A stretch of DNA of 64,000 bases from Candidatus Nomurabacteria bacterium (GTDB lineage: Bacteria > Patescibacteriota > Minisyncoccia > Phycocordibacterales > CAIJYI01). This document shows, piece by piece, positions 19,042 to 58,468 of the stretch. Position 1 is the first letter of the stretch; every line of letters starts with the position of its first letter. The translations under genes were made by a program, and so were the position numbers. Below the pieces are notes generated by a model. It was not told where the DNA came from, ran no database searches, and was given only the letters and a program-made list of their open reading frames with translations. The stretch lies in NCBI GenBank assembly GCA_943356445.1, contig CALREZ010000001.1:15818-79817 (forward strand). The letters are read 5' to 3'.

Positions 19042-19049
19042 GTGTGTTT

Positions 19050-20746: not shown

Positions 20747-20750
20747 AGGT

Positions 20751-21326
20751 TTACCCTTCGTCTTTCAGGAGGTCCATAAAGACGTTTTTTATCGTATGAT
20801 TGAGAATAAGATGGATATCCTCGGAGATTTCCATGTCGTTGATATTAGCATTTATTGAGTATTTTGCGAGTTTTTTCAATTTTCCCCCGTCATATCCGGT
20901 TAGTCCTATCGTGATGTTTCCTTGCGCGTTGGCGTATTCCACCGCTTTTATGACATTCTTGGAATTTCCGCTTCCTGACAGGGCGATAACGAGATCTCCC
21001 GGATTCAGAAAATTTTTCAGTTGTTCAATAAAGACTTCATCGTATGACAAGTCGTTTGAATATGCGGTAATGGTTGCCATATTGTCGGTAAGCGAGTGGA
21101 CGTGAAATTTTTTGTGTTTCCCGTAACTCACTCCTTTGTTGAGGTCGCAGGCGATATGCGAGGCGGTGGAGGCGCTGCCTCCGTTCCCGAAAACAAATAT
21201 GATATTGTCATTTTTATACGTCTCAAAAATGACATGCGCGACTTGGTTGATCTCGTCTCGGCTCAGAGCTTTGACGCACGACGCTACTTTTTCCAAGTAA
21301 TTATTGATCTGTTCTTTTGCTTCCAT
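20751..21326 (-). CDS. gmhA: phosphoheptose isomerase (SIS domain)
   Basis: 191 aa. IIFVFGNGGSASTASHIACDL is the SIS/GmhA signature. Confidence 0.8.
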   Translation of the reverse strand: MEAKEQINNYLEKVASCVKALSRDEINQVAHVIFETYKNDNIIFVFGNGGSASTASHIACDLNKGVSYGKHKKFHVHSLTDNMATITAYSNDLSYDEVFIEQLKNFLNPGDLVIALSGSGNSKNVIKAVEYANAQGNITIGLTGYDGGKLKKLAKYSINANINDMEISEDIHLILNHTIKNVFMDLLKDEG

Positions 21327-22170: not shown

Positions 22171-22171
22171 A

Positions 22172-25751: not shown

Positions 25752-27071
25752 TTATTTTTTTTGCAATAATTTTTTTTCTTCAAGCTTTTTAATCGCATCA
25801 AGAATTTGCTTTTTGTTCATTTGCGATCTTTCAATCATTTGATCAACACTCGTTTTTCCATCGGCGTAAAACAGTACCCAGTATAGGGCATCGAGTTCAT
25901 TGCTTCTCCATGGTTTTTTTTCATGATCTATGCGATTTAATGCTCCGATCTTTGGATAGAGCCCGCGTTTTCCGAGCTGTAGCTCGCAACGAGATTCTGT
26001 CCGCTCATAAAACTTTAGAGAATCAATTTCTTTTATAAGTCTCATGTGCATTTCAATACTTTTGAAGATATTTTCCGCTTTGACAAAATCAAGATTGTCT
26101 AATGAGGTATGATAGTAATCATATTCACAGTATTTATCCCGACAAATAGTTATGCAGGGTATACGGAATCCCGGAGACGAATATTGGCGTTCATCGCTTC
26201 CTTGAGGCACGAACTCATACTCTTTGAATTCTTGTTTTGATGCTGTCAGTACTTTTCTAGCAGCGATATCAACGAAGCTCTTTTCTTCAAAAGAAGGTTT
26301 CAACGAAAAAATCCCAGGACCTCCCACGCAAGATATTATTATCCCGGCCATGACTTTTTTCATTGCGTCTTCATTGTTTTTACAATACGCAACCGCGCCT
26401 ATCGTTTCCGGAACAAAGACAATCCGGTAGCTGTAATTCAGCTTCATTTCCAACATTTTTTTTGCGAGAAAAGTCGTAAGCACAATTCCGCTCAAGTTAT
26501 CATTTGCAAGCGAAGGATGGCAAATATAAGTTGAAATGAGAAACTCATCATTTTTTTTGCCCGGAATCAATAATTCGCCTAAAGAAAGCGAACCGTCCTC
26601 AAGGTTTGAGTCAATGAAAACTTCGTATTTCTCACCCTCCCTAAAATATTTCTTGAAGTCATCATAGCTCACGCAAAATCCCCAGTAATCGTTATAATAC
26701 GAAGTCCTATAGGGTACCGCACAGGGAAGGTTTTCTTTATAGTGTAAATGGGGAACAAGCTCTTTAAAAGTAAGTTTTCCTTTTACTGGCTGACTATATC
26801 CTACCACGTGCAAATTGCTTTTCTTGAAATCAACAATTTTTTCTCCCTGAGAATTTTTTATCCAGCCATCTTTTATATTCCATTCTTTTGGAATTACCCA
26901 GTCGTAGACTTCTTGTCCCGAAGGGTATTCTTTTATTTTCAAAGGAACAATATCTTGCAGTATTTTGAGTGTTTTTCTATTTCCGATGCCAGTAAGACTT
27001 CGTGAAATAGGAAAAAGAAGCTCCATGCATTGTCGTATCTCATTAGTTACTATTGATCGTTTGCTCATGGC
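25752..27071 (-). CDS. hypothetical protein, aminopeptidase-like DUF4910/DUF2172-type domain protein
   Basis: About 440 aa from the internal Met (MSKRSIV), which abuts the upstream gene. It has a YICHPSLANDNLSG acidic/His cluster. Family assignment is tentative. Confidence 0.4.
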   Translation of the reverse strand, partial: AMSKRSIVTNEIRQCMELLFPISRSLTGIGNRKTLKILQDIVPLKIKEYPSGQEVYDWVIPKEWNIKDGWIKNSQGEKIVDFKKSNLHVVGYSQPVKGKLTFKELVPHLHYKENLPCAVPYRTSYYNDYWGFCVSYDDFKKYFREGEKYEVFIDSNLEDGSLSLGELLIPGKKNDEFLISTYICHPSLANDNLSGIVLTTFLAKKMLEMKLNYSYRIVFVPETIGAVAYCKNNEDAMKKVMAGIIISCVGGPGIFSLKPSFEEKSFVDIAARKVLTASKQEFKEYEFVPQGSDERQYSSPGFRIPCITICRDKYCEYDYYHTSLDNLDFVKAENIFKSIEMHMRLIKEIDSLKFYERTESRCELQLGKRGLYPKIGALNRIDHEKKPWRSNELDALYWVLFYADGKTSVDQMIERSQMNKKQILDAIKKLEEKKLLQKK

Positions 27072-27072
27072 T

Positions 27073-27750
27073 TTAATTGCTCTCCGCAGGTTTTTGAAAT
27101 ATGAGGTCCATTGAGTTGTTCCAAAAAGCAAATTTCCCGCGTCCGGTGAACAGTTTTTTAAGAAAACAGAAATGATCTTTAACCGGATTTGAGTAGGCAC
27201 TATCAAGATAGGGATATCTGATTTCTTTGAAACTGAAGCCGAAATTTTCCATGGCTTGTTTTAAGCTATTATCGGATGGAAGGTAGAAATTTTGTTCAGG
27301 AATAAGAAGGGGAAGGGAATTCCAGAGTTTGAAATATAGACTGTTCGTATTTGGCGTCATGAGAAATACAACAAAACCTCCGGGCTTTAAAGCCTCAAAC
27401 GTTTTCTTCATATACAGAAACGGAGTGTCTATATGCTGAATTGTTCCGCGAAAAACAATAAGATCAAAGAAATTTTTTGAATTAAAAAGATCTTTATCAA
27501 ACCGTATTCCTTTCTCTGTGGCGATGGATTTTGCAAATTCGGATATTTCCATTCCATAGGTTTCACCATTCCACTTCAGAACATCAAGGAACTCTCCAGT
27601 GGAGCATCCGACATCCAGAAGTTTTCCGGAACAAATATATTTATTAATGAATTCTTTTTCAGACAAAAAACTTTTTTGTCTTTTTATGTCATTCCCGACC
27701 CGATCTCTAAAATATTCAGGATTGAATACTTCGCGATACTTTTCGTTCAT
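27073..27750 (-). CDS. class I SAM-dependent methyltransferase
   Basis: 225 aa. LLDVGCSTGEFL motif I and FDLIVFRGTIQHI motif. Confidence 0.7.
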   Translation of the reverse strand: MNEKYREVFNPEYFRDRVGNDIKRQKSFLSEKEFINKYICSGKLLDVGCSTGEFLDVLKWNGETYGMEISEFAKSIATEKGIRFDKDLFNSKNFFDLIVFRGTIQHIDTPFLYMKKTFEALKPGGFVVFLMTPNTNSLYFKLWNSLPLLIPEQNFYLPSDNSLKQAMENFGFSFKEIRYPYLDSAYSNPVKDHFCFLKKLFTGRGKFAFWNNSMDLIFQKPAESN

Positions 27751-32362: not shown

Positions 32363-33430
32363 TTAGTCTTTTGTAAGGTTTAATACTTTTGTTATTGTTT
32401 CAGCGAAATTCTCAGGGAGAAACTTTTTGTATTTTTCGCTTTGAAGGAAGCGTTCTATCGCACAGAGATACTCGTTGTATCTTTCTTCCGTAACGGAAAA
32501 GAGATAATCGGCCAGTTCCTTTTCGTTTTTGAATTTTCTTCGGTCTATAAAAACATCCTCGTCAATATAATCGGCAACATTCGGCGCTCCAAGATATATT
32601 GGCACTGTTTTTGCCGCAAGGGCATCAAAAATCTTTTCAGTGATATAGCCGTTTTGTTCCGTGTTCTCGTAGCACAAAGCAAATTTGTATTGAGAAAGCG
32701 TATTAATCTTATTTGGAACCTCGCCTTGAAATTTTTTGTATTTTTTGACCAGCCAAGGAATTCTTTTTTGCCACTTTGTTATCGGTTGGTTCCAGTATAT
32801 GCCAAACAAATCGAAATGTTCGGGGTAATTGGCATCAAAATACGTTATGGTATTTCTCCTGGCCGTATATAGTTCCAGCGGAAGAGAAGATGTTTTATTT
32901 GTTATGATGTTTACTAAAAATTTTCTCTCAGAAAACGTTCGGTTATTTCGTATTGGTTTTGATGTTGCGGAAGGATGATGAACCTTAAAAAATTTTTTGT
33001 TGTCAATAATGTCGTCATCCCAAGTTAAAATACGGTTGAAATGTTTCCATAGAGCCGGGTCGTAGTTGCGCGGGCAAATGACTTTTCCTTCCATGATTAA
33101 AAAAACAAGTTTATCGGACATGGATAATTTTTCCGCTTCTGTGACAAGCTCTCTTTTCGGCCATATTTGCGGGAGTTTTAATCCGAGGATTTTTTTTAAT
33201 CGCCATTTCCACGATTTTTTGTGCTCGTTGGAAACGCTTTCGGCGTTAAGAAAAAGGATCCACCCGCACCCTTCCACGGAATTGCTGTCTGCGGTCGTAA
33301 ATTCATACCCGAGGAACTGAAGTTTATCGCGAAGCATGCGCCATGTTTCGGTGACGTTATTTATATCCGGGCCGAACATCCTGTTATTGCCGAGGGGGCG
33401 GCTTGGAACCTGAAGAAGTATTTTTTTCAT
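32363..33430 (-). CDS. alpha-1,3-fucosyltransferase (GT10)
   Basis: QYKFALCYENTEQNGYITEKIFDALAAKTVPIYLGAPN matches the GT10 FucT motif (YKFxLxFENS ... GYxTEK). Start set at MKKILL, overlapping the upstream stop by 4 bp. Confidence 0.7.
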   Translation of the reverse strand: MKKILLQVPSRPLGNNRMFGPDINNVTETWRMLRDKLQFLGYEFTTADSNSVEGCGWILFLNAESVSNEHKKSWKWRLKKILGLKLPQIWPKRELVTEAEKLSMSDKLVFLIMEGKVICPRNYDPALWKHFNRILTWDDDIIDNKKFFKVHHPSATSKPIRNNRTFSERKFLVNIITNKTSSLPLELYTARRNTITYFDANYPEHFDLFGIYWNQPITKWQKRIPWLVKKYKKFQGEVPNKINTLSQYKFALCYENTEQNGYITEKIFDALAAKTVPIYLGAPNVADYIDEDVFIDRRKFKNEKELADYLFSVTEERYNEYLCAIERFLQSEKYKKFLPENFAETITKVLNLTKD

Positions 33431-34299
33431 TGGTTTGTTTTGAACGCGCTTTTTATCTGACGGTAGATCTTTTCCCCGAAAAGATGTTTTAAAAACTTTT
33501 TGAAACGCAGTAACTCCCATCGTATTTTGTTTTGGGATTTGAACCAAAAATGTTTGATCCATGAAATGACAAAAAACAAGAAGGCTTGAACCTTACGAGG
33601 AAATTTTTTCAGAAGAGCGTTACGGAATAAGAGGAATTCAGAAAAGGGAAGCATCGTCTGCAATTTTTTAACAATCATAGGCATGGCGCTTTGCGAAAGA
33701 TGAGCTCCGTCTAAAAAGTACTGTTGTTTTGTATCATCGTTGGGGTTTAGGAGTTCATTCAGTATTGAAAGTACGCGGATGTTTCTATTTTTTGCTTCTT
33801 CCAGCAGCTTCTCGTTGAATTCTTTTTTTAATCGGTTTATTTCTCTGTCGTCGGCATCATCCGGATATTTTTCACGACCGGAAAATCTCGAAACGATGAG
33901 AGGCGAAGACCCTAAAAGAATTACCTCATATCCCATGTTTTTTATCTCGGTGATGGCGGAAAAATACCTTTCCAAAACGTCATCAATCATTTTTTCTATG
34001 CTTTCGTTTTGATGCGATACGTGCTTCATGAGATATATCATACGGCAATCCAGTTCGCCGAAAGACAAAAGAACAAGATCTTTTTTATCTATTTTTTCAA
34101 GTATTTTGAACAGGATTTCACGATCGTGAGACTTGGCGCTTTCTTTGTATAAATTGTATGCCAAAGATGGCCCAGTAAAATATGTCTTAAACGACGGGAT
34201 TTTATTTACTGTTTTTGCCGGCCATATCGGATAAAGAAAATTTGTTCCGGAGAAGACGTGGACGTGGCTATCGCCGACGCAGTGTATCGTTCTAACCAT
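33427..34299 (-). CDS. SGNH/GDSL-hydrolase family protein
   Basis: 290 aa. Block I CVGDSHV, block III GSSPL, block V DGAHLS (DxxH). Possible glycan O-acyl esterase or transferase. Confidence 0.5.
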   Translation of the reverse strand: MVRTIHCVGDSHVHVFSGTNFLYPIWPAKTVNKIPSFKTYFTGPSLAYNLYKESAKSHDREILFKILEKIDKKDLVLLSFGELDCRMIYLMKHVSHQNESIEKMIDDVLERYFSAITEIKNMGYEVILLGSSPLIVSRFSGREKYPDDADDREINRLKKEFNEKLLEEAKNRNIRVLSILNELLNPNDDTKQQYFLDGAHLSQSAMPMIVKKLQTMLPFSEFLLFRNALLKKFPRKVQAFLFFVISWIKHFWFKSQNKIRWELLRFKKFLKHLFGEKIYRQIKSAFKTNQ

Positions 34300-35603: not shown

Positions 35604-36422
35604 TTATATTATATCCGCAAAGTATCGCTCTGTTTTTTTAAACATGACGATACCGATAGCAAGGAGAACAGAAGTCGCCACGAAAGAAATGAATATAAGA
35701 AGGCCGTTTATTTTTGCTGTGCCCAAAAGAGCCGCACGCGCATTCTGGATCACTCCGGTCATTGGATTTATAGCAAGTATCCATGAGTATTTTCCGGCGA
35801 TACTGGCCGGGTAAATGACAGGGGTCAAGAACATTAACATTTGAATAAAATAAGGAAGAATATAACGGACGTCGCGATATTTTACATTGATTGCGGCAAG
35901 GAAAAGCCCCAGACCGACGGCTGCCATAAAACAAATGATAAGAAGGATCGGAAGGACGAGAATTCCCAACAGGTTGGGATGATATCCGTAATAGATCATC
36001 ATCCCCACGAGAATCGTCGCGGCGATGGCGAAATCAACCAATTGGGTAATAACCGAAGTGATCGGGAGAATGAGGCGAGGAAAATACACTTTGGTAATAA
36101 TGGATTGATTGGCTATCAAGCATGAGCTGGTGCTGGAAAGCGCGCTGGAAAAAAATTGCCAAAAGAGCAATCCCGTGTAAACGAAAATCGGATAGGGAAC
36201 TCCATCAGAGGGCATTTTTGCGAGTTTTCCGAAAAAGATGGTAAAGACCACCATGGTCATGAATGGTTGGAAGATCGCCCACGCCGCCCCGAGAGCGGTC
36301 TGTTTGTACCTAACCTTCAGGTCTCTCCATGTGAAAAAATAGAGCAATTCTTTGTATTGCCAAATTTCACGAAGATCATTCCATCTAAAGATTTTTTTTG
36401 GTTTGATTATCGTCGTTTGCAT
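35604..36422 (-). CDS. wzm: ABC-2 type polysaccharide exporter permease (Wzm-like)
   Basis: 272 aa, 6 TM segments, an ABC-2 family pattern, adjacent to wzt. Confidence 0.8.
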   Translation of the reverse strand: MQTTIIKPKKIFRWNDLREIWQYKELLYFFTWRDLKVRYKQTALGAAWAIFQPFMTMVVFTIFFGKLAKMPSDGVPYPIFVYTGLLFWQFFSSALSSTSSCLIANQSIITKVYFPRLILPITSVITQLVDFAIAATILVGMMIYYGYHPNLLGILVLPILLIICFMAAVGLGLFLAAINVKYRDVRYILPYFIQMLMFLTPVIYPASIAGKYSWILAINPMTGVIQNARAALLGTAKINGLLIFISFVATSVLLAIGIVMFKKTERYFADII

Positions 36423-36559
36423 GTCATTATATCTTACGTTATTTTAGGGATTTTTTCCAGTGGGAATGCTCGCTTTTTATAGAACTGTTAAAAACACAAA
36501 AAGTTACCGGAAAGGCGGGGATTGAAAAGGGCCGGCGCTTCCTGTAATATAATGGACAT

Positions 36560-36916
36560 ATGACAGTAAAAGGGGTCGGTATTGATATTGCGGAGGTCAA
36601 AAAATTTGCTTCTTTTAAGAAAAACGGGGAAGACCGATTTTTGTCTAATAATTTCACCGAAAAAGAGTTGGAATACTGTTTCTCTTTTGCGGATTCAAGT
36701 ATTCATCTCGCGGCAACTTTTGCCGCGAAGGAGGCGGTGTGGAAAGCTTTTGGGAGGGCCGATATGCTTCAGTCAGCGATTGAGGTCAGGCGGAATGGCT
36801 CAGGGTATCCGACAGTGTGGATAAAAAACCGGCCGCAAAAATCTATTTTACTTTCTATAAGTCACACAACGGAAACAGCCGTCGCCGTCGCAATTATGAC
36901 GAATAGAAAAAAATAA
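36560..36916 (+). CDS. acpS: holo-[acyl-carrier-protein] synthase (4'-phosphopantetheinyl transferase)
   Basis: 118 aa. GVGIDIAEV ... FAAKEAVWKAF are AcpS motifs. Confidence 0.85.
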   Translation: MTVKGVGIDIAEVKKFASFKKNGEDRFLSNNFTEKELEYCFSFADSSIHLAATFAAKEAVWKAFGRADMLQSAIEVRRNGSGYPTVWIKNRPQKSILLSISHTTETAVAVAIMTNRKK

Positions 36917-37000
36917 AAATAGAAAAATTACAAAAATATAACCGCTTTGGCAATCTTTCCATTTTTCTGTTTTCTTATTTTTTATATTATTATTTTATTT

Positions 37001-38044
37001 ATGAATACAAAAAAATGCATTGTGCTTGATTTGGATAATACTCTCTGGGGAGGGATTGTCGGGGAAGATGGATTTGATGGAATACAGCTTTCTTTATCTC
37101 ATCCGGGTTCAAGTTTTATTGCTTTTCAACAAGCTCTTTTGGATCTCTATAATCGTGGAATTATTCTGGCGGTAAATAGCCGAAATAATTTTGAAGACGC
37201 GATGAAGGTAATCCGTACTCATCCGAATATGATCCTGAAAGAACTTCACTTTGCGGCGATGCGCATCAACTGGAACGATAAGGCCGCGAATATCGTTGAA
37301 CTGGCAAAAGAACTCAATATCGGACTGGACTCCATGGTGTTTTTTGATGATGACCCGACTAATCGTGCGACCGTTCGAGCCATGGTCCCCTCTGTGGAAG
37401 TTCCCGAACTTCCCGCAAGTCCTGAAGAATACGCAAAATTCCTTCTTTCCCTCCCATATTTTCCGAGCGCGGCGATAACGGATGAAGATAAAATGCGCGG
37501 GAGTCTGTATGTAACGGAACGGTTGCGTCAAGAAGCGGAAAAGTCATTCCCGAGCAAAGAAGAGTTTTTAAAAAATCTCGGATTGGAACTTCATATTCTG
37601 GAAGATGATCCGACCTCTATTGCTCGCCTTGCTCAGATGACAGGAAAAACCAATCAGTTCAATGTAAACAAAATCCCCATGACGGAAGAAGAAATGACAG
37701 GCTTTATGGAACATCCCGAATACAAAGTATTTCACGGGCATGTTGCCGATCGTTTCGGTGAACATGGCATTACGAACTTGGCGATTGTGAAAAAAAATGG
37801 CGAGAATTGGAACATAGAACATTTCCTTATGAGTTGTCGGGTAATCGGTCGGGGAATAGAAGATGCTTTTTTGACGGCCATTGCTGGTGTCGCGAAAAAA
37901 GAGGGAGTGAAGCGTCTCGCGGTTACTTTTATCCCTACGGAAAAAAACGCGCCGGCTCAAGAATTTATCAATCGGCGTTTTATCAATAACGAAACAATGG
38001 TGGAAGATACTCCTTCCTCTCCGGAGTGGATTACGATCAAATAA
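37001..38044 (+). CDS. HAD-IIIC family phosphatase, FkbH-like
   Basis: CIVLDLDNTLWGG is HAD motif I DxDxT with the FkbH-like LWGG. The size and C-terminal region fit the FkbH-like domain. Start at ATG 37001. Confidence 0.75.
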   Translation: MNTKKCIVLDLDNTLWGGIVGEDGFDGIQLSLSHPGSSFIAFQQALLDLYNRGIILAVNSRNNFEDAMKVIRTHPNMILKELHFAAMRINWNDKAANIVELAKELNIGLDSMVFFDDDPTNRATVRAMVPSVEVPELPASPEEYAKFLLSLPYFPSAAITDEDKMRGSLYVTERLRQEAEKSFPSKEEFLKNLGLELHILEDDPTSIARLAQMTGKTNQFNVNKIPMTEEEMTGFMEHPEYKVFHGHVADRFGEHGITNLAIVKKNGENWNIEHFLMSCRVIGRGIEDAFLTAIAGVAKKEGVKRLAVTFIPTEKNAPAQEFINRRFINNETMVEDTPSSPEWITIK

Positions 38045-38045
38045 T

Positions 38046-38276
38046 ATGGAAAAATTTAATGAAATGGCGGGCGAAGCTTTTAAAATGTCGCCATCTGAAG
38101 TAAAAGATTCTTTGACTCCGAAAGATATACCTGAGTGGGATTCCATGAACTTTCTTCTGTTTATTGCCGCTTTGGAGAAGGAATTTAATTTCTCATTCAG
38201 TATGGACGAAGTGCTAAACGCAAAATCGCTTGGCGATATAAAAGCGGTATTGAAGGGTAAAGGGTTGATTGCATGA
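38046..38276 (+). CDS. acyl carrier protein
   Basis: 76 aa. WDSMNFLLFIAALEKEF carries the DSL/M phosphopantetheine-attachment serine context. Confidence 0.7.
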   Translation: MEKFNEMAGEAFKMSPSEVKDSLTPKDIPEWDSMNFLLFIAALEKEFNFSFSMDEVLNAKSLGDIKAVLKGKGLIA

Positions 38277-38692
38277 TTGCGAAAGATTTAAAATTTGAGG
38301 ATATTAAAAAGGGGGATTCTTCTTCTTTTGAAGTAACGATAACAGAAAGCGACATACAAAAATTCGCTGAACTTTCCGGTGATTATAATCCGCTTCATGT
38401 TGATGAAGAATATGCAAATGAAACGGAATTTGTCGGGAGGGTCGTTCACGGAATGTTTCTCGGATCATTGGTTTCTCGTTTTGTCGGAATGGAACTGCCC
38501 GGGAAAAAAGCTCTCTTGTTGAAAGAAACGCTTGAGTTTAAAAAACCGGCAAGAATCGGCGACCGTATTATTGTGAAGGGGGCTGTCGTCTATAAAAGCG
38601 AACCGCTTCGCCTTATAGAACTTTTAATGGAAATACGCACGGAAAAAGAATTGCTCGTTTCCGGTTCCGTGTATGCAGGGGTTTTACTATAA
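38273..38692 (+). CDS. MaoC-like (R)-specific dehydratase, hot-dog fold
   Basis: 139 aa. DYNPLHVDEEYA ... GRVVHGM is the MaoC dehydratase motif. Confidence 0.75.
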   Translation: MIAKDLKFEDIKKGDSSSFEVTITESDIQKFAELSGDYNPLHVDEEYANETEFVGRVVHGMFLGSLVSRFVGMELPGKKALLLKETLEFKKPARIGDRIIVKGAVVYKSEPLRLIELLMEIRTEKELLVSGSVYAGVLL

Positions 38693-38699
38693 ATAAAAA

Positions 38700-39458
38700 A
38701 TGAATGCCACTCAAAAGATTGCGGTAATATCCGGTGCAACGGGATACATCGGATACGAAACAGCAAAAAAACTTGCGGCTGACGGCATGCGTATAGCGAT
38801 GCTTTACTATGGTTTATCAAAGGAGGATGCTATTCGTATGGTTTCTGAACTTTCAGGAGAAGGACATAATGCTTATTTTTGCGATATTTCGGATGAAAAC
38901 GCCGTTACTCAGGTTATTGATAGGATAGAACAAGAAATGGGCCATTTATATGCGTGTATTCACGCCGCCGGAACGCTGCCGAAGCCAAAACAACTTCACC
39001 TTTCTTCCCCTGCTGATTTGGATGAACAGTTTAAGGTGAATATATTTGGGACTTTTAATTTTTTGTCGTCTTGCGCAAGGCGCCTCAAAGAACACAAAGA
39101 CGGGGTGATTATTGGAATTACCACCGCAGGTGTCGTTACTCCAATCAACACAAAAGCTCGCGGAGCTTACAGCGTGCTGAAGTTCGCTCTTCAAGGGATG
39201 CTCGTTGCGCTCAAAGAAGAACTTTCTTCTTTTGGCATCCGAGTATATTCTATTGCTCCGGGCGTATTACCTGGAGGGCTGAATCGCGATACCCCGAAAG
39301 CATTTCTTGAAATAACGAGAAGTACGAGCCCGACAAAAACGCTTGCTGCGGCAGAAGATGTGGCAGAAAAAATATCTTCTCTTTGTTTGGAAACGGCGAA
39401 TGGAATATCAGAGTTCACATTTTTAATCGCGCCGGAGACCGGTATAATGCCGAAATAG
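38700..39458 (+). CDS. SDR family oxidoreductase
   Basis: 252 aa. ISGATGYIGYETAKKLA Rossmann motif, YSVLKFAL (YxxxK) and NAAG-like IHAAG. Confidence 0.8.
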   Translation: MNATQKIAVISGATGYIGYETAKKLAADGMRIAMLYYGLSKEDAIRMVSELSGEGHNAYFCDISDENAVTQVIDRIEQEMGHLYACIHAAGTLPKPKQLHLSSPADLDEQFKVNIFGTFNFLSSCARRLKEHKDGVIIGITTAGVVTPINTKARGAYSVLKFALQGMLVALKEELSSFGIRVYSIAPGVLPGGLNRDTPKAFLEITRSTSPTKTLAAAEDVAEKISSLCLETANGISEFTFLIAPETGIMPK

Positions 39459-39461
39459 GAT

Positions 39462-40178
39462 ATGGATAGCAAAAGAAAAACAATAATCATTTCCGGCGGA
39501 GGCGGATATTTAGGAAACGCTCTTGTCCGAACGTTTACGAAAAACGGTTTTAATATCATTGTCCTTGAAAGAGAAATAAAAGGATTGTCTGGTACGGAAA
39601 ATCTGCACTTTAAACTCGCTGATGTTTCCAATTTTTATGATGTAAAGAAAGCGGCTGACGAAGTAAAAAAAGAATTTGGAGGGATTTTTGCCATAATCCA
39701 CGCCGCATCGGCTCCCCTTGTCCGCCAGCCGGCGCTTTCTGTTTCTGAAAAAGATTTTGAAAAACAGTTTGCGGTAAATGTTCTTGGGGGTTTTTATCTT
39801 TTTAAGTATTTTAGCGAGATGCTTTCTCCAGACGGTGCCATCATCGGGATAACGACTTCGGCAATCTTTCATGGTACTGCTCATGCAAAAAGCGGTTCAT
39901 ATGTAGCCGCAAAATCGGGGTTGTGGGGATTGCTCCGTTCTATCTCTTTTGAGACTTCATTTCGCGTTTATTCCGTTGCCCCGGCCTTTATGCCGGATGG
40001 GTTGAACAAAGATCTTCCGCTCGCAATAAGAGAATTCATTGTTAAAAAAATCGGCACCAAAAATGTTACGGATGCCGGAGAAGTTTCTCTTACTGCTCTT
40101 TCCCTTGTGAACGACAAAGAGAGAAGGTGGAGCGGAAAGACTATTGCTCTGCCGGGATTTTTGGTAACTGAATTCTAA
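39462..40178 (+). CDS. SDR family oxidoreductase
   Basis: 238 aa. ISGGGGYLGNALVR and YVAAKSGL (YxxxK). Confidence 0.75.
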   Translation: MDSKRKTIIISGGGGYLGNALVRTFTKNGFNIIVLEREIKGLSGTENLHFKLADVSNFYDVKKAADEVKKEFGGIFAIIHAASAPLVRQPALSVSEKDFEKQFAVNVLGGFYLFKYFSEMLSPDGAIIGITTSAIFHGTAHAKSGSYVAAKSGLWGLLRSISFETSFRVYSVAPAFMPDGLNKDLPLAIREFIVKKIGTKNVTDAGEVSLTALSLVNDKERRWSGKTIALPGFLVTEF

Positions 40179-40181
40179 CTT

Positions 40182-41642
40182 ATGCTTTTTAATTCATTTT
40201 CATATTTGATATTTTTCCCTCTGGTCTTTGCTGCATTCTTTTCTGTCCCCAAACGTTTCCAGACCAGCGTTCTTCTCCTCTCAAGCTGTGTTTTCTACAT
40301 GGCCTTCGTTCCGAAATATATCCTCATTCTTTTCTTCCTCATCACCGTTGATTTTTTTGCCGCTCAGGCCATTGAAAAAAGAGAAGGCATTGAACGGAAA
40401 AGATTTCTCCAGCTTTCCATTTTTGCGAATATCGGCACGCTTTTTGTTTTTAAATACTTCAATTTTTTCAACATAAATATCGCCTCCCTCGCCGGTTTTC
40501 TGCACTGGAACTATTCTCCGTTTCTTTTGACCATCATTCTGCCTCTCGGTCTCTCTTTTCATGTCTTTCAAAGCTTGAGCTATGTCATAGAAGTATACCG
40601 GAAAAAATATGCCCCGGAGAAAAATTATTTGACCTATGCTCTCTATGTCATGTTTTTCCCTCAGTTGGTTGCCGGGCCGATAGAACGGCCTCAGAATCTT
40701 TTGCCTCAATTCCATGTTTTTCATGATTTTGATCCGGTAAACGCAAGAAAGGGGTTGGAAAGGATGCTGTGGGGATTTTTTAAGAAACTGGTTATTGCGG
40801 ATCAGCTGGCTCTTGTTGTGAATGCGATGTTTGCGCATCTTCCTTCCGACGGGGTGGCTCTTCTCATCATGATGTTTTTTTTCTCCTATCAGATCTATTG
40901 TGATTTTTCAGGTTACTCTGATATCGCCATCGGCTCCGCTCTCGTGCTCGGATATGACCTTTCCGAGAACTTCAACCGCCCCTACGCTTCGCGTTCCATT
41001 GCCGAGTTTTGGAGGAGATGGCACATGTCGTTGTCCGGATGGCTTCGCGACTATTTGTATATTCCTCTTGGTGGAAATCGGGTTTCAACAAAGCTTCGCT
41101 GGTATTTTAATATCATGACGACATTCGTTCTTATCGGTCTTTGGCACGGAGCGAACTGGACGTTCGTGGCTTTTGGGGCTTTGCATGGAGTTTATCGTGT
41201 TGTTGGAGAGATAACGAAACAAACAAGAGAGAAGATATGGAAGATTCTCGGGACTCCAAGAAAAATCCAATCCGTGGCGCAAACACTTATTACTTTTTTT
41301 CTCGTTCTTATCGGTTGGATATTTTTCCGCGCTCAAAACATTTCTCAAGCAGGGCAGATCTTCTCGGGTATTGCTGTTGGAATCGGTAATTTCTTTGATA
41401 TGAATTACTTACGGTTTAAGCTTGGAAGGGGTCTTGGAATCGGAGGAACACAGCACGTATTTGCTTATGCCATGGTAATAGTGATGGAGATCGTTCAGTA
41501 TTTTCAGACACGGAAAAACACTTTCTATATTTTTGACAGCCAGCCGAGAGTTATCAGATACGGATGGTATTATCTGATCGCTCTGATTATCTTGTTTTCG
41601 GGGTATTTTGGGGAAACTGCCTTTATCTATTTTCAATTCTAA
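40182..41642 (+). CDS. MBOAT family O-acyltransferase (DltB/AlgI-like)
   Basis: 486 aa polytopic protein. N-terminal MLFNSFSYLIFFP and the conserved MBOAT His region RRWHMSLSGWLRDYLYIPLGGNR. Confidence 0.85.
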   Translation: MLFNSFSYLIFFPLVFAAFFSVPKRFQTSVLLLSSCVFYMAFVPKYILILFFLITVDFFAAQAIEKREGIERKRFLQLSIFANIGTLFVFKYFNFFNINIASLAGFLHWNYSPFLLTIILPLGLSFHVFQSLSYVIEVYRKKYAPEKNYLTYALYVMFFPQLVAGPIERPQNLLPQFHVFHDFDPVNARKGLERMLWGFFKKLVIADQLALVVNAMFAHLPSDGVALLIMMFFFSYQIYCDFSGYSDIAIGSALVLGYDLSENFNRPYASRSIAEFWRRWHMSLSGWLRDYLYIPLGGNRVSTKLRWYFNIMTTFVLIGLWHGANWTFVAFGALHGVYRVVGEITKQTREKIWKILGTPRKIQSVAQTLITFFLVLIGWIFFRAQNISQAGQIFSGIAVGIGNFFDMNYLRFKLGRGLGIGGTQHVFAYAMVIVMEIVQYFQTRKNTFYIFDSQPRVIRYGWYYLIALIILFSGYFGETAFIYFQF

Positions 41643-41644
41643 AC

Positions 41645-42775
41645 ATGTCGCATTTCTTAAAAAAATTCTTTCTTTTTTTAGCTCCGTTTGGCTTAATATT
41701 TATTTTGCCGATTACCGTATTTCTGCTAAGCCGAGAATATTATACGATAGACCGCGCTCTTCTCGTGGAGAAAGAACATCCGAACGCGGTGATAGGGCTT
41801 GCTTATAGCAATATATCCGGGCTTAAGAATGCGCTTGTCGCAAAGAACAATCCGACCGTGTTTGCGCTCGGGACTTCCCGTACGGGACAATTCAGAAAAG
41901 AATTTTTTACGGCATCGTCCACATTTGTTACGGCAAGCAATTCCGTGGTGAGCATTGACGGGATGAAAAAATTTATTGAGGAACTTCCCGACGACAATAA
42001 AACTGAAATTGTTATACTCGGTTTGGATCCGAATATGTTTTTGCCGTCATACCTTCATGAGTATCCGTCCGAAACAGATTATGAAAGGTTGAAAGATTTG
42101 TTCTTGGGAAGGTGGAGGAATTTTTATATCGCTTACTTTTCAGGAAGATTTTCCATCAAAGAATTGTGGATTCGCTCGGGGCAGACGGAAAGCATCGGGT
42201 TAACCGGCATTATGAGGGAAGAAGGGTTTCGTCCCGATGGCAGCTATCAATACCGGAAAAAACTTTCAGAACCGAATCGCGAGGAACTTTTGAAATCAGA
42301 TATGGATACTTCCATTTCTTTACTCAGAGCGAACAGGAGCAATCCATATTATAATCAATACAGCGACCCTTTCTCAAAAGACGTGATTTTGTCTCTTGAT
42401 GAGCTTTTAACGCTTTGCCAAAAGAAGCATCTCTATGTGGTCGCATATATTCCTCCTTTTCCACCGCTTGTGTATCAGGAACTCATTCGTTTGCCTGACG
42501 GACAAAAAGAAAATGTATTGCAGCTGCCAGCGGCCCTCAGAGAAACTCTTTCCCGACACGATTTTGACTTTTACGATTTTTCCGACAGTACTATTCTCGG
42601 AAAACACGATAACGAATTTATAGATCCGTCGCATGGAACCGATAAGTATTACCTGCGGATGATTTTATATATGGCTGAAAGAAATAAGAGGTTGTCGGAG
42701 TATGTTGATATTCCGAAAGATAACAAACTGTTGCAAAACGCGAACAAAGATTATTTGGATGATGTTCTTAAATAA
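41645..42775 (+). CDS. putative MBOAT partner protein (DltD/AlgJ-like, N-terminal membrane anchor)
   Basis: Start at ATG 41645 (MSHFLKK) after the MBOAT stop. Single N-terminal TM, FALGTSRTGQ and DPSHGTD SGNH-like blocks. Assignment rests on context. Confidence 0.45.
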   Translation: MSHFLKKFFLFLAPFGLIFILPITVFLLSREYYTIDRALLVEKEHPNAVIGLAYSNISGLKNALVAKNNPTVFALGTSRTGQFRKEFFTASSTFVTASNSVVSIDGMKKFIEELPDDNKTEIVILGLDPNMFLPSYLHEYPSETDYERLKDLFLGRWRNFYIAYFSGRFSIKELWIRSGQTESIGLTGIMREEGFRPDGSYQYRKKLSEPNREELLKSDMDTSISLLRANRSNPYYNQYSDPFSKDVILSLDELLTLCQKKHLYVVAYIPPFPPLVYQELIRLPDGQKENVLQLPAALRETLSRHDFDFYDFSDSTILGKHDNEFIDPSHGTDKYYLRMILYMAERNKRLSEYVDIPKDNKLLQNANKDYLDDVLK

Positions 42776-42789
42776 TAGGGAATAAAATT

Positions 42790-43725
42790 TTATTCAGCCC
42801 GACTTTCTTTGAACCAGGCGTATGACATTTTTATTCCTTTTTCCAGAGGAACTTTATGCTTCCAGCCAAGAGTATGAAGTTTTGAAACGTCTAACCATTT
42901 TCGGGGTGTGCCGTCGGGCTTGCTTTTATCCCAGACGAGTTTTCCGGCGAAGCCGACAGTCTTTTTCGCGAGTTCGGCGAGTTCTTTAATGGAGCAATCT
43001 TCACCTGTGCCGATGTTTATTGTTTCCGAACCGTCATATTTGTTCATCAGAAAGATACAGGCATTGGCAAGATCATCAATGTACAAAAACTCGCGTTTTG
43101 GTTTTCCGCTTCCCCACATAATGACTTCCTTTGCTTGATTCTTTTTTGCTTCGTGAAGTTTGCGCAGCATCGCAGGAAGGACGTGGGAATTTTCAAGGTC
43201 AAAATTATCATTCGGACCGTAGAGGTTTGTGGGCATGACGGAAATGAAATTCGTTCCGTATTGTTTGTTGTAGGATTCGCACATTATCATGCCGGCAATT
43301 TTTGAAATGGCGTATGCTTTATTGGTTGGTTCAAGATAACCGCTTAAAAGATATTCTTCTTTTATCGGTTGCGGGCAGTTTCTCGGATAAATGCAGGAAC
43401 TGCCGAGGAAGAGAAGCTTTTTTACTTTAGAGAGATACGCATTGTGAATAACATTGTTTTGAATCTGAAGATTTGAATAGGCAAAATCCGCCGGATAGGT
43501 TTTGTTGGCAATAATTCCTCCGACTTTGGCGGCGGCGAGGAAAACATACTCCGGTTTTTCTTGAGCGAAGAACTTCTCAACCGCTTTTTGGTCAAGCAAA
43601 TCCAGTTCTTTTCTTGTTTTTAAAACAAGGTTGTTATATCCCTTTTTTTGCAGAGCTCTGACGATTGAGCTTCCGACGAGTCCTTTGTGTCCGGCGACGT
43701 AGATCTTTGAATCTTTTTTCATCAT
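42790..43725 (-). CDS. fcl: GDP-L-fucose synthase
   Basis: 311 aa. [19 protein letters not shown] and YAISKIAG (YxxxK) match the Fcl/WcaG family. Confidence 0.9.
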
Positions 43726-46387: not shown

Positions 46388-47884
46388 ATGCTTTTCAATT
46401 CGTTTTCTTTTCTCATCTTCTTTCCGGTTGTTACCGCCGGATATTTTCTTGCTCCGCACAAATATCGCTGGGCGTTTCTTCTTGCGGCGAGTTGTGTTTT
46501 TTACATGGCTTTTATTCCGTACTATATACTGATACTTTTTACCGCCATCGGAATTGACTATTATGCGGGCATAAAAATTGAAGATACGGAAGACGTGAAA
46601 AAGAGAAAAACGTATTTGATTTTAAGCGTGGTCAGCACTTCGCTTCTGCTTATCCTTTTCAAGTACTTTAATTTTTTCAATGCCAATTTTAAAGAAATAG
46701 CGAGTTTTCTGCATTGGAATTATTCCATTGGTTTTTTGAGTATCGCTTTGCCGATAGGGCTTTCTTTTCATACGTTTCAAAGTTTGAGTTATGTTATTGA
46801 GGTATATCGTCGGAAGCAGAAAGCCGAACGACACCTCGGCATTTATTCGCTCTATGTCATGTTCTATCCGCAATTGGTTGCGGGGCCGATTGAACGTCCT
46901 CAGAATTTGCTTCACCAATTCCGCGAAAGGCATGAATTTGATTACCTGAGATTAAGAGCGGGGCTTCAACGGATGCTGTGGGGATTTTTCAAAAAAGCGG
47001 TAATCGCGGATAATCTCGCCATGTACGTCGGTCTTGTTTTTGGAAACCCGCATCATTATTCCGGAGCTCCTCTTTTGCTTGCTTCGGTATTTTTCGCTTT
47101 TCAGATATATTGCGATTTCTCCGGCTATTCCGATATCGCTCTCGGTTCGGCGAAGGTTATGGGTTTTGATCTCATGGAAAATTTTAAAGTCCCGTATGGC
47201 GCAACGACCGTAACGGAATTTTGGAGAAGATGGCATATCTCGCTTTCTTCGTGGATACGCGATTATATTTTCTTCCCGCTTTCCATGGGATGGAGGAAAA
47301 TGGGGAAGCTCGGCATCGTGTGCGCCACGTTGGTTACGTTTGCTTTTGCCGGACTGTGGCATGGGGCGAGCTGGCTGTTTGTTTTCTTTGGTTTGCTTCA
47401 TGGATTCGTTCTTTCTCTTGAACTTCTTACTTCTCGGTGGAGAAATAAAATATCGTCATTTTTTCCGGACATATGTTCAAATATATTTGGCAGGCTCTAC
47501 GTCTTTTCTTTTTGGACAGCCTCGCTTGTTTTTTTTCGGGCGGGAACCTTTGCTGATGCGCTCTATATAGTATCTCGTTTTCCTTCGGGGATTTCCGAGT
47601 TTGGCCGAACCGTGGGGACGGCTCTTTTTCAGATGAGCGTTGCTCCTTTCCGAATGCTTTTTTCCACACTCCAACTGTACTATGGAAATTTGAGGTTCTC
47701 TTTTCTTTTGGGATTGGTGCTGGTCGTTATTGTTTCTGAAATACTGGAGTATAAAATAGGACTTTTTGTTTTACTCAACAAAATCCCCAAGATTTTCAGA
47801 TGGATATGGTATGTTGTTTTGGTTCTCTCCATAATGAATCTGGGGGTAACTACCGAAGTGCTGTTTATTTATTTTCAATTCTAA
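46388..47884 (+). CDS. MBOAT family O-acyltransferase (paralog of 40182..41642)
   Basis: 498 aa. About 55-60% identical to the other MBOAT by eye (MLFNSFSFLIFFP ... RRWHISLSSWIRDYIFFPL ... IYFQF). Confidence 0.85.
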   Translation: MLFNSFSFLIFFPVVTAGYFLAPHKYRWAFLLAASCVFYMAFIPYYILILFTAIGIDYYAGIKIEDTEDVKKRKTYLILSVVSTSLLLILFKYFNFFNANFKEIASFLHWNYSIGFLSIALPIGLSFHTFQSLSYVIEVYRRKQKAERHLGIYSLYVMFYPQLVAGPIERPQNLLHQFRERHEFDYLRLRAGLQRMLWGFFKKAVIADNLAMYVGLVFGNPHHYSGAPLLLASVFFAFQIYCDFSGYSDIALGSAKVMGFDLMENFKVPYGATTVTEFWRRWHISLSSWIRDYIFFPLSMGWRKMGKLGIVCATLVTFAFAGLWHGASWLFVFFGLLHGFVLSLELLTSRWRNKISSFFPDICSNIFGRLYVFSFWTASLVFFRAGTFADALYIVSRFPSGISEFGRTVGTALFQMSVAPFRMLFSTLQLYYGNLRFSFLLGLVLVVIVSEILEYKIGLFVLLNKIPKIFRWIWYVVLVLSIMNLGVTTEVLFIYFQF

Positions 47885-47885
47885 T

Positions 47886-48824
47886 ATGAAAATTTTTTGG
47901 AGCTGGACAGTATTTTTCATCATCATTTTTCTTTCGCAGATCGCGATCTCTCATTTTATTACCGAACCGTGGGGAGCGAGAACCCTTTCTGAAACCCTTG
48001 ATAAAGGATATGACGTCTTGTACTTCGGAGACAGTACGGTTGACGCTTCGGCCGATACGGATACTGACAAAGCTCCGATCACCGAAATGCTCAGACGTTT
48101 AAAACCGGAGCTTTCCATCGCCGACCTTTCCCGCAGTTCCAATCATCTGGGTCTCTATGAAGCCATGGTTGGGCAGATCGCAAAATCCGGAAAAAAGCCC
48201 GTCATAATCATACCCATCAATATGAGAAGCTTTTCCCCGTGGTACGACAAGCGGCCGGAATTTCAGTTTGAAAAGGAGATATTTTATCTGACGGCGCCGT
48301 CTCCTCTTATTGCTTGTTTTTACAAACCGCTTGCCGTATTTCGCGCGATAAATGTTAACGCCGTAACTTTTTCCGAGTTTTATCAGACGCCGGTTTATCG
48401 GGGAAAAAAGCAGATTGGCATTGTCGCAGATTTTAATGACACGGTTCTCGCGACAACAACGCCGGAAAATATCAAAACGAGTTTTATGCTCGGGTATATG
48501 TTTGATCTTGATGCAAAGCATCGAAAGCTTGATTCGTTGCGAAACATTATTGACCAAGCTGACCGATCGGGTATAAAAATATATTTTTATATTACCCCGA
48601 TAAATCACGAGCAGGGAGAAAAATTTTACGGAAAAGAATTCAAAGAACAAATGGAGAAGAATACCGATACCGTTTGCGCCATTCTCAAAGAGAAAAAACA
48701 TTCTTGCTTGAATCTCGCTTTTTCCGTTGATCCGAGCTATTTCCAGTCACCCGTTCTCCCGAGCGAACATCTCAATGAAAAGGGAAGAATGTTTGTGGCT
48801 GAAGAGGTTGCCAAAATGCTTTAG
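47886..48824 (+). CDS. putative MBOAT partner protein, SGNH-like
   Basis: 312 aa. N-terminal TM, VLYFGDSTVD (block I GDS) and a PSEHLNEKG region; directly follows the MBOAT gene. Confidence 0.45.
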   Translation: MKIFWSWTVFFIIIFLSQIAISHFITEPWGARTLSETLDKGYDVLYFGDSTVDASADTDTDKAPITEMLRRLKPELSIADLSRSSNHLGLYEAMVGQIAKSGKKPVIIIPINMRSFSPWYDKRPEFQFEKEIFYLTAPSPLIACFYKPLAVFRAINVNAVTFSEFYQTPVYRGKKQIGIVADFNDTVLATTTPENIKTSFMLGYMFDLDAKHRKLDSLRNIIDQADRSGIKIYFYITPINHEQGEKFYGKEFKEQMEKNTDTVCAILKEKKHSCLNLAFSVDPSYFQSPVLPSEHLNEKGRMFVAEEVAKML

Positions 48825-51358: not shown

Positions 51359-51566
51359 AGAGGTTACGCTCATTGAAAAAGCGCCTTTATTTTGAAAGGC
51401 CACATACAAGTACAAATGCAACACAAATCGCAATTGATAAAAGTATCAGTTGCGCGTGCTAATAGAATTTTGCAAGAATTCGTTAGACGTAATTACGAGA
51501 ACAAAAGACCAAATAGCACAGCGATGCAAATTGGATTTTCTTTTGTTTCACTCTTGTCTTTTTTTT

Positions 51567-53050
<1,484 letters not shown>

Positions 53051-53362
53051 TTCATTTTATTGCGATCATCTTGTTTTCTTCGGAAAACAAAGATTGATTC
53101 GAAATGGCGATTGCTCAACCTAGTTGAGTAAGGCAATGGTTTTCTTGCCTTTAAATAAAAACCCCTTCAGCTTCTTTTGGTTAAAGAAGCAAACCCATAA
53201 AGAAAGAGTGAAACAAAAGAAAGTTAAATTTGCTTTCTGACTCTCGTATTTTGTGAAGCATTGCAAAATTAACCCGCATGATCTGCGGTTTTTTTTGTGC
53301 ATATGCAAAAGGTATCTCCTCACGCTATTTAAAAAATGGCTTGACTGTGTATTTTTTTTGTC

Positions 53363-58418: not shown

Positions 58419-58468
58419 CAAACGACGGTAGCGTTAAAGTCTCTTTTATTTTGTCACTCTCTCGTAAT

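Follow-up and report, generated by a model that had tools for sequence, protein, structure and literature searches.

A candidate cassette for O-acylation of a cell-surface glycan with a C3 hydroxy-acid: FkbH-type loader, acyl carrier protein and MBOAT genes in a glycan locus of Candidatus Nomurabacteria

This work concerns a cassette of eight genes at positions 36560–42775 of the window, i.e., the whole 64,000-nt stretch of Candidatus Nomurabacteria DNA that was analysed, in which an AcpS, an FkbH-like loading enzyme, an acyl carrier protein (ACP), a MaoC dehydratase, two short-chain dehydrogenases/reductases (SDRs), an MBOAT (membrane-bound O-acyltransferase) and an SGNH-like partner protein are encoded one after another. 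A preliminary description, made from the letters alone, had proposed that a C3 acyl group from glycolysis is loaded onto the ACP and that a DltB-type MBOAT with a DltD-type partner passes it to a surface glycan. In the follow-up analysis the loader, the ACP, the tailoring enzymes and the DltD-like partner of that interpretation stand, whereas the DltB-type MBOAT has to be given up.

Gene content and layout of the cassette

Eight same-direction open reading frames (ORFs) span this interval on the + strand. Independent gene calling on a 116-kb metagenome contig with an identical MBOAT (ENA ERZ27280322) gave the same eight genes, and three shorter contigs of related samples yielded the same calls. 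The co-directional set described earlier is confirmed in this way, but two gene starts differ from those of the longest ORFs: homologues and the contig gene calls place the start of the FkbH gene at ATG 37001 and not at TTG 36947, and that of the last gene at 41645 and not at 41564. The features are as follows:

36423–36559, no strand assigned: intergenic stretch from which wzm (- strand) and acpS (+ strand) diverge; it probably holds the cassette promoter, on weak indication
36560–36916, + strand: acpS, 118 aa
37001–38044, + strand: fkbH-like loader gene, 347 aa
38046–38276, + strand: acp, 76 aa
38273–38692, + strand: maoC, 139 aa
38700–39458, + strand: sdr1, 252 aa
39462–40178, + strand: sdr2, 238 aa
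40182–41642, + strand: mboat, 486 aa
41645–42775, + strand: partner gene, 376 aa

The spacing between successive genes, read 5′ to 3′, is +84, +1, −4, +7, +3, +3 and +2 nt, the dedicated ACP gene beginning 1 nt past the FkbH stop codon and the partner gene 2 nt past the MBOAT stop codon. The earlier statement that the genes abut or overlap by 1–4 nt is right in that most of them abut, but the range is −4 to +7 nt, and 84 nt follow acpS. A promoter-like site was found by pattern scan at 36522–36550, upstream of acpS, and is weak, such sites occurring overall at chance level; in 36300–43000 the counts of promoter-like and terminator-like sites are no higher than in shuffled sequence and are uninformative on co-transcription.

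With Pfam and NCBIfam, seven of the eight cassette proteins were assigned to the expected families (AcpS, FkbH, PP-binding, MaoC_dehydratas, adh_short twice and MBOAT), and the eighth, the partner, was left unmatched. First of all, AcpS matches PF01648 with 47 bits and TIGR00556 with 67 bits (cut-off 45), and is predicted to convert the apo-ACP of the cassette to holo-ACP. The ACP matches PP-binding with 26.4 bits (cut-off 20.8), and its best match in the Protein Data Bank (PDB) is 2lml, a putative ACP. The serine on which phosphopantetheinylation depends is present as Ser33 within a W-D-S motif, whose conservation over 88 FkbH-adjacent ACPs is 100% for W, 95% for D and 99% for S.

The FkbH domain of the loader scores 296 bits against TIGR01686 (cut-off 146.65) and covers profile positions 2–315 of 323. 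In the predicted model, the protein consists of an N-terminal haloacid dehalogenase (HAD) phosphatase domain and a C-terminal domain with the fold of GCN5-related N-acetyltransferases (GNAT). Its homologues number more than 8,000, are mostly 345–350 aa long and share about 60% identity with the window loader, and many of them come from metagenome-assembled genomes (MAGs) of Patescibacteria. In the alignment, the HAD motif residues D10, D12, T14, S60, K94, D116 and D117 are invariant in the family and in ZmaN/FkbH orthologues, and the family-invariant residues include K5, C6, D10, D12 and T14 (KKC.VLDLDNTLW), D116, D117, S278, C279 and R280; C6 and C279 are both invariant with the FkbH genes of polyketide synthase (PKS) clusters included. 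C279 directly precedes an R-x-x-G-x-G motif (RVIGRG) in the GNAT-fold domain, which we take to be the GNAT pantetheine-binding motif.

Two loaders from PKS or nonribosomal peptide synthetase (NRPS) clusters were used as references. One is a HAD-IIIC gene between an ABC exporter gene and an NRPS gene in a zwittermicin-type cluster of Bacillus thuringiensis, which is the position of zmaN; the other is a Streptomyces HAD-IIIC gene in a locus with 3-hydroxyacyl-CoA dehydrogenase, ACP and acyl-CoA dehydrogenase genes, i.e., the classical fkbK-J-I-H set. The window loader aligns with them end to end (33% and 31% identity, respectively), and the TNQ.N and SCR..RG motifs, all HAD motifs and both cysteines are invariant across the three proteins. 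The glycan-type subfamily to which it belongs is about 32% identical to the characterised loaders (31–33%) and has insertions relative to PKS-type FkbH. Moreover, a published degenerate FkbH primer encodes KCLVWDLDNTLW, which is the N-terminal motif of the window loader. The HAD Asp motif and both cysteines, on whose presence the FkbH-like assignment had been made to depend, are kept, and judged by these alignments the protein is a genuine member of the FkbH family.

The MaoC protein (PF01575, 74 bits) shows the hydratase-2 motif SGDYNPLHVD, Asp and His included, and this hot-dog enzyme is predicted to dehydrate glyceryl-ACP to enol-pyruvoyl/pyruvoyl-ACP. SDR1 (adh_short, 107 bits) has the GxxGxxG and YxxxK (YSVLK) motifs, and SDR2 (adh_short, 70 bits) has a glycine-rich nucleotide-binding motif and YxxxK (YVAAK), so that, as read from the sequences, the catalytic motifs of the dehydratase and of both reductases named earlier are intact. 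The two SDRs are FabG-like paralogues with 33% identity, and SDR1 is a candidate 2-oxoacyl-ACP reductase. Relatives fill this slot with a single SDR, which may belong to either paralogue type; in L085, the closest relative, only the SDR2 type is present at this position. A sister contig from another sample (L003, ENA ERZ27280321) is identical over sdr1 save for a 1-nt deletion at the equivalent of about 39077 (GCGCAAGG to GCGCAGG), by which SDR1 is split into pieces of 135 aa and 117 aa; either this is an assembly error or the extra SDR is dispensable.

The MBOAT and its partner protein

The MBOAT matches PF03062 with 87.6 bits. Its best NCBIfam model is DltB (TIGR04091), which it matches with 163 bits, below the equivalog cut-off of 375, and its best PDB matches are the DltB structures 8jem and 6bug (E ~1e-27). 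The histidines His322 (WHG) and His281 (RWH) are present, and the C-terminus is FIYFQF, an FxYxxF acyl-shuttle motif containing Tyr483; the same six residues terminate 71 of 84 related MBOATs. This motif was defined in a 2025 study of PatAB, according to which the Dlt pathway carries it on the DltX microprotein, whereas in the other bacterial MBOATs it is fused to two additional helices at the C-terminus; the tyrosine of the motif is auto-acetylated by PatA from acetyl-CoA, and PatB next takes the acetyl group (PMC12148441). In the same study, Dlt is the only pathway that uses a carrier protein, and the other MBOAT–SGNH pathways are without one since they use acyl-CoA (PMC12148441).

The cassette has no separate DltX microprotein with FxYxxF, the motif being fused at the MBOAT's own C-terminus. 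Like PatA/PatB, AlgI/AlgJ/AlgX and WssH, it combines an MBOAT of about 480–500 aa, which has a catalytic His and, at its C-terminus, two further helices that end in FxYxxF, with a separate SGNH partner. From its score and its fused motif, the MBOAT is therefore placed in the PatA/AlgI-like architecture and is not a DltB orthologue, contrary to the DltB type assigned before. The PatA/AlgI type is marked by an acyl-CoA donor and the lack of a carrier protein in the system, whereas the MBOAT here shares its operon with a complete AcpS/loader/ACP module, a linkage that extends over its whole clade. Since by the published rule (PMC12148441) an MBOAT with a fused motif needs no ACP, the coupling between the two was examined by comparative genomics.

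The 376-aa partner has no sequence match in Pfam, NCBIfam or PDB. Its AlphaFold2 model (predicted local distance difference test, pLDDT, 87; predicted template modelling score, pTM, 0.86) has an N-terminal anchor helix followed by an SGNH fold, for which DltD is the closest fold, the top five Foldseek matches all being DltD. Over nine members of the partner family, G76, S78, R79 and D327-x-x-H330 are invariant in the alignment, and the predicted catalytic triad consists of Ser78 (LGTSR), Asp327 and His330 (DxxH). In its predicted fold, its nearest structure and its invariant Ser and DxxH, the protein is thus DltD-like, in line with the SGNH/DltD-type partner postulated at the outset. Only 5 and subsequently 9 relatives turned up when homologues were sought by indexed words, but an exhaustive search showed a large family of 4,196 representative clusters at E ≤ 1e-3, for which there is no Pfam model.

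A second MBOAT pair lies at 46388–48824, with no ACP nearby. Its MBOAT (46388–47884, 498 aa) is 47% identical to the first and also ends in FIYFQF, and 1 nt after it starts the gene of a 312-aa protein that is without Pfam match and has an FGDST motif close to the N-terminus. By BLASTP, the two partners of the window (376 aa and 312 aa) show no similarity to each other, and in two FkbH-linked loci (L015 and L022) homologues of the 312-aa protein stand in for the 376-aa one.

Recurrence of the module in other genomes

With the FkbH alignment, 80 genome loci were retrieved and searched with the window proteins. They comprise the 20 closest loci (FkbH 56–78% identity, mostly Patescibacteria MAGs) and 60 distant ones with a long-form FkbH of about 600 aa, from Acidobacteria, Planctomycetes, Thaumarchaeota, and Asgard and DPANN archaea. 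The neighbours of FkbH are distributed as follows:

ACP adjoining FkbH: 19/20 closest loci, 56/60 distant loci
MaoC near FkbH (following the ACP in the closest loci): 19/20 closest, 15/60 distant
SDR near FkbH: 17/20 closest, 6/60 distant
AcpS within 2.5 kb of FkbH: 17/20 closest, 32/60 distant, archaeal loci among them
MBOAT within 3 kb of FkbH: 13/20 closest, 4/60 distant

FkbH, hot-dog dehydratase, SDR and carrier occur together in synteny in 17 of the 20 closest loci. The gene order of the cassette recurs, which was one of the checks suggested at the start, and because it does so in many unrelated metagenome-assembled genomes, the arrangement is more than a chance juxtaposition. The pairing of AcpS with the module likewise holds, even in the archaeal loci. 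Where the MBOAT is missing, another acyltransferase may stand by the module, such as an AAC(3)-like N-acyltransferase (L009) or an AAC(3)–DUF4910 fusion (L033), and in Thaumarchaeota a divergently transcribed hexapeptide transferase adjoins the FkbH module. Because MBOAT-less loci carry another acyltransferase in this way, AcpS-FkbH-ACP looks like a portable donor supply that is combined with differing transferases and would always need one.

Two further neighbours of long-form FkbH were seen. A VOC (glyoxalase-fold) gene recurs beside ACP and long-form FkbH in L167, L168 and L169, the hosts being Sinorhizobium meliloti, a Paroceanicella plasmid and 56-kb Clostridium perfringens plasmids, which suggests another tailoring route for glyceryl-ACP. 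In Acidobacteria, a conserved protein of about 373 aa without Pfam match follows long-form FkbH-ACP in more than 10 loci (for example L038, L043, L059, L065, L076 and L078, at about 11.1–12.5 kb in each).

The partner alignment retrieved another 80 loci from metagenomes. The MBOAT gene lies directly upstream of the partner gene wherever the contig reaches far enough, and of the 29 loci whose upstream sequence extends over at least 3.5 kb, 8 have FkbH-ACP together with the pair. On this evidence the MBOAT–partner pair is a general module that usually works without ACP. In a neighbour-joining tree of 84 MBOATs from all retrieved loci, the window MBOAT falls in a clade of at least 16, each member of which, where its context is known, directly follows FkbH-ACP-MaoC-SDR; the second MBOAT of the window groups with lineages that are not linked to FkbH. 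None of the conserved Arg/Lys residues, possible marks of CoA binding, is lost in the FkbH-linked clade, and the clade has extra basic residues at 189, 266, 347, 351, 361 and 444, which may lie on either side of the membrane and whose comparison is confounded by kinship. MBOATs of other, unrelated lineages also stand beside FkbH-ACP, in arrangements of their own:

L014: MBOAT-partner-AcpS-FkbH-ACP-MaoC-SDR
L019 and L024: MBOAT, then AcpS-FkbH and following genes
L141 and L142: FkbH-ACP-MBOAT-partner, with no MaoC or SDR
L031: MaoC-SDR-AcpS-FkbH-ACP-MBOAT
L150: MBOAT convergent with FkbH-ACP
L167 (S. meliloti pSymB, CP140883.1, 1050782–1055816): VOC-MBOAT (ending FLYQGF)-409-aa protein-ACP-long-form FkbH

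The 409-aa protein of S. meliloti is annotated, probably wrongly, as a TonB-dependent receptor, and hhalign found no similarity between it and the partner family; in strain 1021 the FkbH gene match is split into two pieces. Because a repeated association that does not depend on gene order is hard to explain otherwise, a functional link between MBOAT and FkbH-ACP is suggested; the coupling is supported by clade-specific and repeated adjacency, that is, by genomic inference and not by demonstration. An AlgI-type MBOAT working without ACP, which the preliminary description had named as speaking against its own reading, is thus found in part: the architecture is that of PatA/AlgI, yet the clade is FkbH-linked.

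Proposed acylation pathway, its alternatives and the surrounding locus

The cassette diverges from the wzm/wzt genes, whose Wzt has a C-terminal glycan-binding domain. In its neighbourhood are GDP-mannose, GDP-fucose and heptose-type nucleotide-sugar gene sets, NeuB and cytidylyltransferase genes, a Wzy_C/TPR protein, GT10 and GT11 fucosyltransferases, and many further glycosyltransferases and methyltransferases. About 49 larger ORFs of the window were scanned against Pfam, among which no GNAT, hexapeptide, AAC(3)-type or AMP-binding (DltA-like) protein and no ketosynthase (KS) or PKS domain was found. The acyltransferase candidates among them are the MBOAT pairs and, conceivably, an SGNH-like protein at 33427–34299, the first MBOAT pair alone being in one operon with the ACP.

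With middling confidence, the eight genes are read as one self-contained cassette that would use a C3 hydroxy-acid from glycolysis (lactyl or glyceroyl) to O-acylate an exported glycan of the cell surface. From the observed gene content, family membership, catalytic motifs, partner fold and recurrent synteny, we infer the following route. AcpS would phosphopantetheinylate Ser33 of the ACP to give holo-ACP, and the FkbH-type enzyme would capture 1,3-bisphosphoglycerate as a Cys thioester, probably on Cys279; its HAD domain would strip the 3-phosphate and its GNAT-fold domain would hand the glyceryl unit to holo-ACP. MaoC, for which this substrate is formally a 3-hydroxyacyl thioester, would then remove the 3-OH to give the enol of pyruvoyl-ACP, and a FabG-like SDR would reduce the 2-oxo group to lactyl-ACP; in relatives without MaoC and SDR the product would stay glyceroyl-ACP, and glyceroyl would be installed. 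At the cytoplasmic face, the MBOAT would take the acyl group from the phosphopantetheine of the ACP and, by catalysis at His322, pass it to Tyr483 of FIYFQF at the outer face, from which the membrane-anchored partner would accept it on Ser78 and esterify a glycan hydroxyl. The acceptor would be the glycan made by the surrounding locus and exported via the divergent Wzm/Wzt ABC transporter.

As in Dlt, the gene of a small phosphopantetheine carrier adjoins those of an MBOAT and of a DltD-like SGNH protein with a predicted membrane anchor, and the proposed path leads from a cytoplasmic thioester through the MBOAT, an acyl-Tyr in FxYxxF and the SGNH Ser to the polymer. Unlike in Dlt, there is an FkbH-type loader in place of the adenylating DltA, the carrier is ACP-like and not DltC, the shuttle motif is fused with no DltX, the MBOAT stays below the DltB equivalog cut-off, and the acyl group would be a hydroxy-acid and not an amino acid, so that no positive charge would be added. 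With the FkbH/OzmB/ZmaN loaders the window protein shares TIGR01686, its length (347 aa vs 341–366 aa), KC.V.DLD.T.W and SCR..RG, and an adjoining dedicated ACP; it differs in having MaoC and SDR for partners, against the FkbK/FkbI dehydrogenases and FkbG methyltransferase of the methoxymalonyl-/hydroxymalonyl-ACP pathways, and in that its product would go to a membrane acyltransferase, theirs to a PKS. The OzmB-type route runs from phosphoglyceryl-S-enzyme through glyceryl-S-enzyme to glyceryl-ACP (PMC9057759), and a rule by which an FkbH loading module with dehydratase (DH) and ketoreductase (KR) gives lactyl-ACP, as in FR901464, is encoded in PMC7901079. The FkbH-DH-KR-ACP lactyl starters of the trans-acyltransferase (trans-AT) PKSs (FR901464, bryostatin) likewise consist of loader, hot-dog dehydratase, SDR ketoreductase and carrier, but in the window the enzymes are free-standing, the dehydratase is of MaoC type and not a DH domain, no ketosynthase is present and there are two SDRs. 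The biochemistry of FkbH-DH-KR lactyl-ACP formation from 1,3-bisphosphoglycerate for FR901464 is said to have been described by He et al. 2014.

Glyceroyl groups are also known on bacterial glycans, namely in Pse5Am7Gra of Tannerella forsythia (amide) and as the O-glyceroyl ester L-glycerate of gellan (PMC9104527), and the flagellin glycosylation locus of Campylobacter jejuni contains an FkbH-domain gene, cj1302. In these cases no enzymology ties genes to groups, and N-glyceroyl needs cytoplasmic N-acyltransferases and not an MBOAT; the genetic basis of the N-glyceroyl substitution was stated to be unknown in the T. forsythia study, and no gene assignment for gellan glycerate was found in the literature.

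Several points weigh against the reading as one cassette. The MBOAT has the PatA/AlgI architecture, for which the sole experimentally shown donor is acetyl-CoA (PMC12148441), and 21 of the 29 evaluable MBOAT–partner loci are without FkbH-ACP nearby, which suggests that the pair generally needs no ACP. The proposed link between ACP and MBOAT rests on genomic context, and the conserved order within one clade can partly be attributed to vertical inheritance. FkbH-ACP-MaoC-SDR also occurs without any MBOAT (L006, L008, L009 and L018), and some modules adjoin nonulosonic-acid genes, running into the PseB/NeuB type, the window itself having NeuB and cytidylyltransferase genes. In addition, two SDRs are present, of which the lactyl scheme accounts for only one, and with an identity of only about 32% between glycan-type FkbH and characterised loaders, 1,3-bisphosphoglycerate is a putative substrate.

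It is possible, though unlikely, that two independent modules lie side by side here: the MBOAT–partner pair would be an acetyl-CoA-dependent O-acetyltransferase of the PatA/PatB or AlgI/AlgJ kind, and the glyceroyl or lactyl group of the FkbH module would serve to N- or O-acylate a nucleotide sugar (e.g., a nonulosonic acid) in the cytoplasm, with the gene of the transferase lying elsewhere. The fused FxYxxF, with the published rule that such MBOATs use acyl-CoA (PMC12148441), and the majority of pairs without ACP module fit this explanation. So do the FkbH modules that elsewhere precede AAC(3)-like or hexapeptide N-acyltransferases or PseB/NeuB genes, cj1302 of C. jejuni, the N-glyceroyl pseudaminic acid of T. 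forsythia, and the NeuB, cytidylyltransferase and DUF4910 proteins of the window, the DUF4910 architecture being fused to an N-acyltransferase beside FkbH-ACP in L033. However, the scanned ORFs of the window hold no GNAT, hexapeptide or AAC(3) acyltransferase, and the second, ACP-less MBOAT pair is already available for acetylation. The clade of the window MBOAT is uniformly FkbH-linked, with junctions of 2–3 nt, several unrelated MBOAT lineages adjoin FkbH-ACP in differing orders, and the minimal FkbH-ACP-MBOAT-partner cassettes hold no other transferase, all of which argues for the coupling of loader and MBOAT in one cassette.

If the coupling is accepted, the acyl group might still not derive from glycerate, another acyl (phosphate) being loaded to yield a 3-hydroxybutyryl- or 3-hydroxypropionyl-type ester, which is improbable. 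Bacterial glycans often carry 3-hydroxybutanoyl groups, MaoC hydratases and FabG-type SDRs, the best NCBIfam matches here, are classical for (R)-3-hydroxyacyl thioesters, two SDRs fit a single keto-reduction poorly, and the insertions and the identity of just 31–33% to PKS-type FkbH would leave room for another substrate. On the other side, all four HAD motifs and the FkbH-specific C-terminal domain with its Cys argue for an acyl substrate that is phosphorylated, as 1,3-bisphosphoglycerate is, neither the cassette nor the conserved synteny has a ketosynthase, thiolase, CoA ligase or adenylating enzyme from which a C4 unit could come, and FkbH with DH and KR already has a C3 outcome, lactyl (PMC7901079). 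Finally, that the acceptor is peptidoglycan, a teichoic-acid-like polymer, a lipid or a protein and not the glycan of the locus is quite improbable, for although the characterised MBOAT–SGNH pairs modify peptidoglycan, lipoteichoic acid, alginate and cellulose (PMC12148441) and the sequences themselves carry no acceptor clue, the cassette is divergent from wzm/wzt amid GDP-fucose, heptose, NeuB and glycosyltransferase genes, and partner-family genes in other genomes likewise stand in glycan loci.

In the searchable literature, no paper was found that joins FkbH or HAD-IIIC with an MBOAT in a glycan context; what was found on FkbH/HAD-IIIC with MBOAT or polysaccharide was confined to cyanobacterial peptides, a mention of the C. 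jejuni gene, a marine natural-products review and pathway rules. The parts and the transfer logic are known, and what would be new is the combination, namely an MBOAT of PatA/AlgI architecture fed by a carrier protein that is charged by a glycolysis-tapping FkbH loader. A wider proposal is made only tentatively: a second, widespread carrier-dependent MBOAT–SGNH pathway may place lactyl or glyceroyl esters, uncharged analogues of D-alanyl esters, on the envelope glycans of bacteria of the candidate phyla radiation (CPR) and others, with AcpS-FkbH-ACP (± MaoC, SDR) as a portable C3-hydroxyacyl donor for MBOAT, AAC(3)-like and hexapeptide transferases in bacteria and archaea.

MBOAT–SGNH pairs are the main bacterial route for acylating polymers outside the membrane, and the pathway, if true, would be only the second one of this kind known to be fed by a carrier protein, after the D-alanylation of teichoic acids. 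The rule that Dlt alone uses a carrier (PMC12148441) would then be broken, the fused acyl-shuttle design would accept protein-bound donors, and hydroxy-acid esters drawn directly from a glycolytic intermediate would join cell-surface chemistry. The cassette offers candidate genes for C3 acyl decorations without characterised genetics, and could supply the missing genetics for Pse5Am7Gra, the glyceroyl-pseudaminic acids of C. jejuni and the L-glycerate of gellan. It occurs frequently in CPR/Patescibacteria, a group with hardly characterised envelopes, and its relative on S. meliloti pSymB lies in a cultured, genetically tractable host.

Some further features of the window concern the glycan and the genome. 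The ORF at 33427–34299 (- strand), which belongs to the wzm-wzt operon, encodes 290 aa that match GDSL/SGNH models weakly, and it overlaps the ORF of the GT10 fucosyltransferase at the latter's start; its product may serve the same glycan as a further acyl-esterase or acyltransferase. A DUF4910/DUF2172/HTH_47 protein (25752–27206, - strand) is encoded beside the NeuB and cytidylyltransferase genes, and the same DUF4910 architecture, fused to the AAC(3)-like N-acyltransferase, lies directly downstream of AcpS-FkbH-ACP at L033:11381–13480, which hints that DUF4910 proteins are functionally tied to FkbH-derived acyl groups. On the - strand, 18052–21326 and 21364–23800 hold the heptose-type nucleotide-sugar set (GHMP kinase, nucleotidyltransferase, epimerase/dehydratase and SIS isomerase) and, next to it, the GT11 fucosyltransferase and a GT2–methyltransferase fusion; a methylated polymer rich in fucose and heptose is the probable glycan of the locus. 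A complete bacterial 16S rRNA gene lies at 51560–53056 with no 23S rRNA gene beside it, and a lone tRNA-Ile(GAT) gene follows 5 kb downstream at 58347–58419; such unlinked rRNA genes fit a CPR-type genome.

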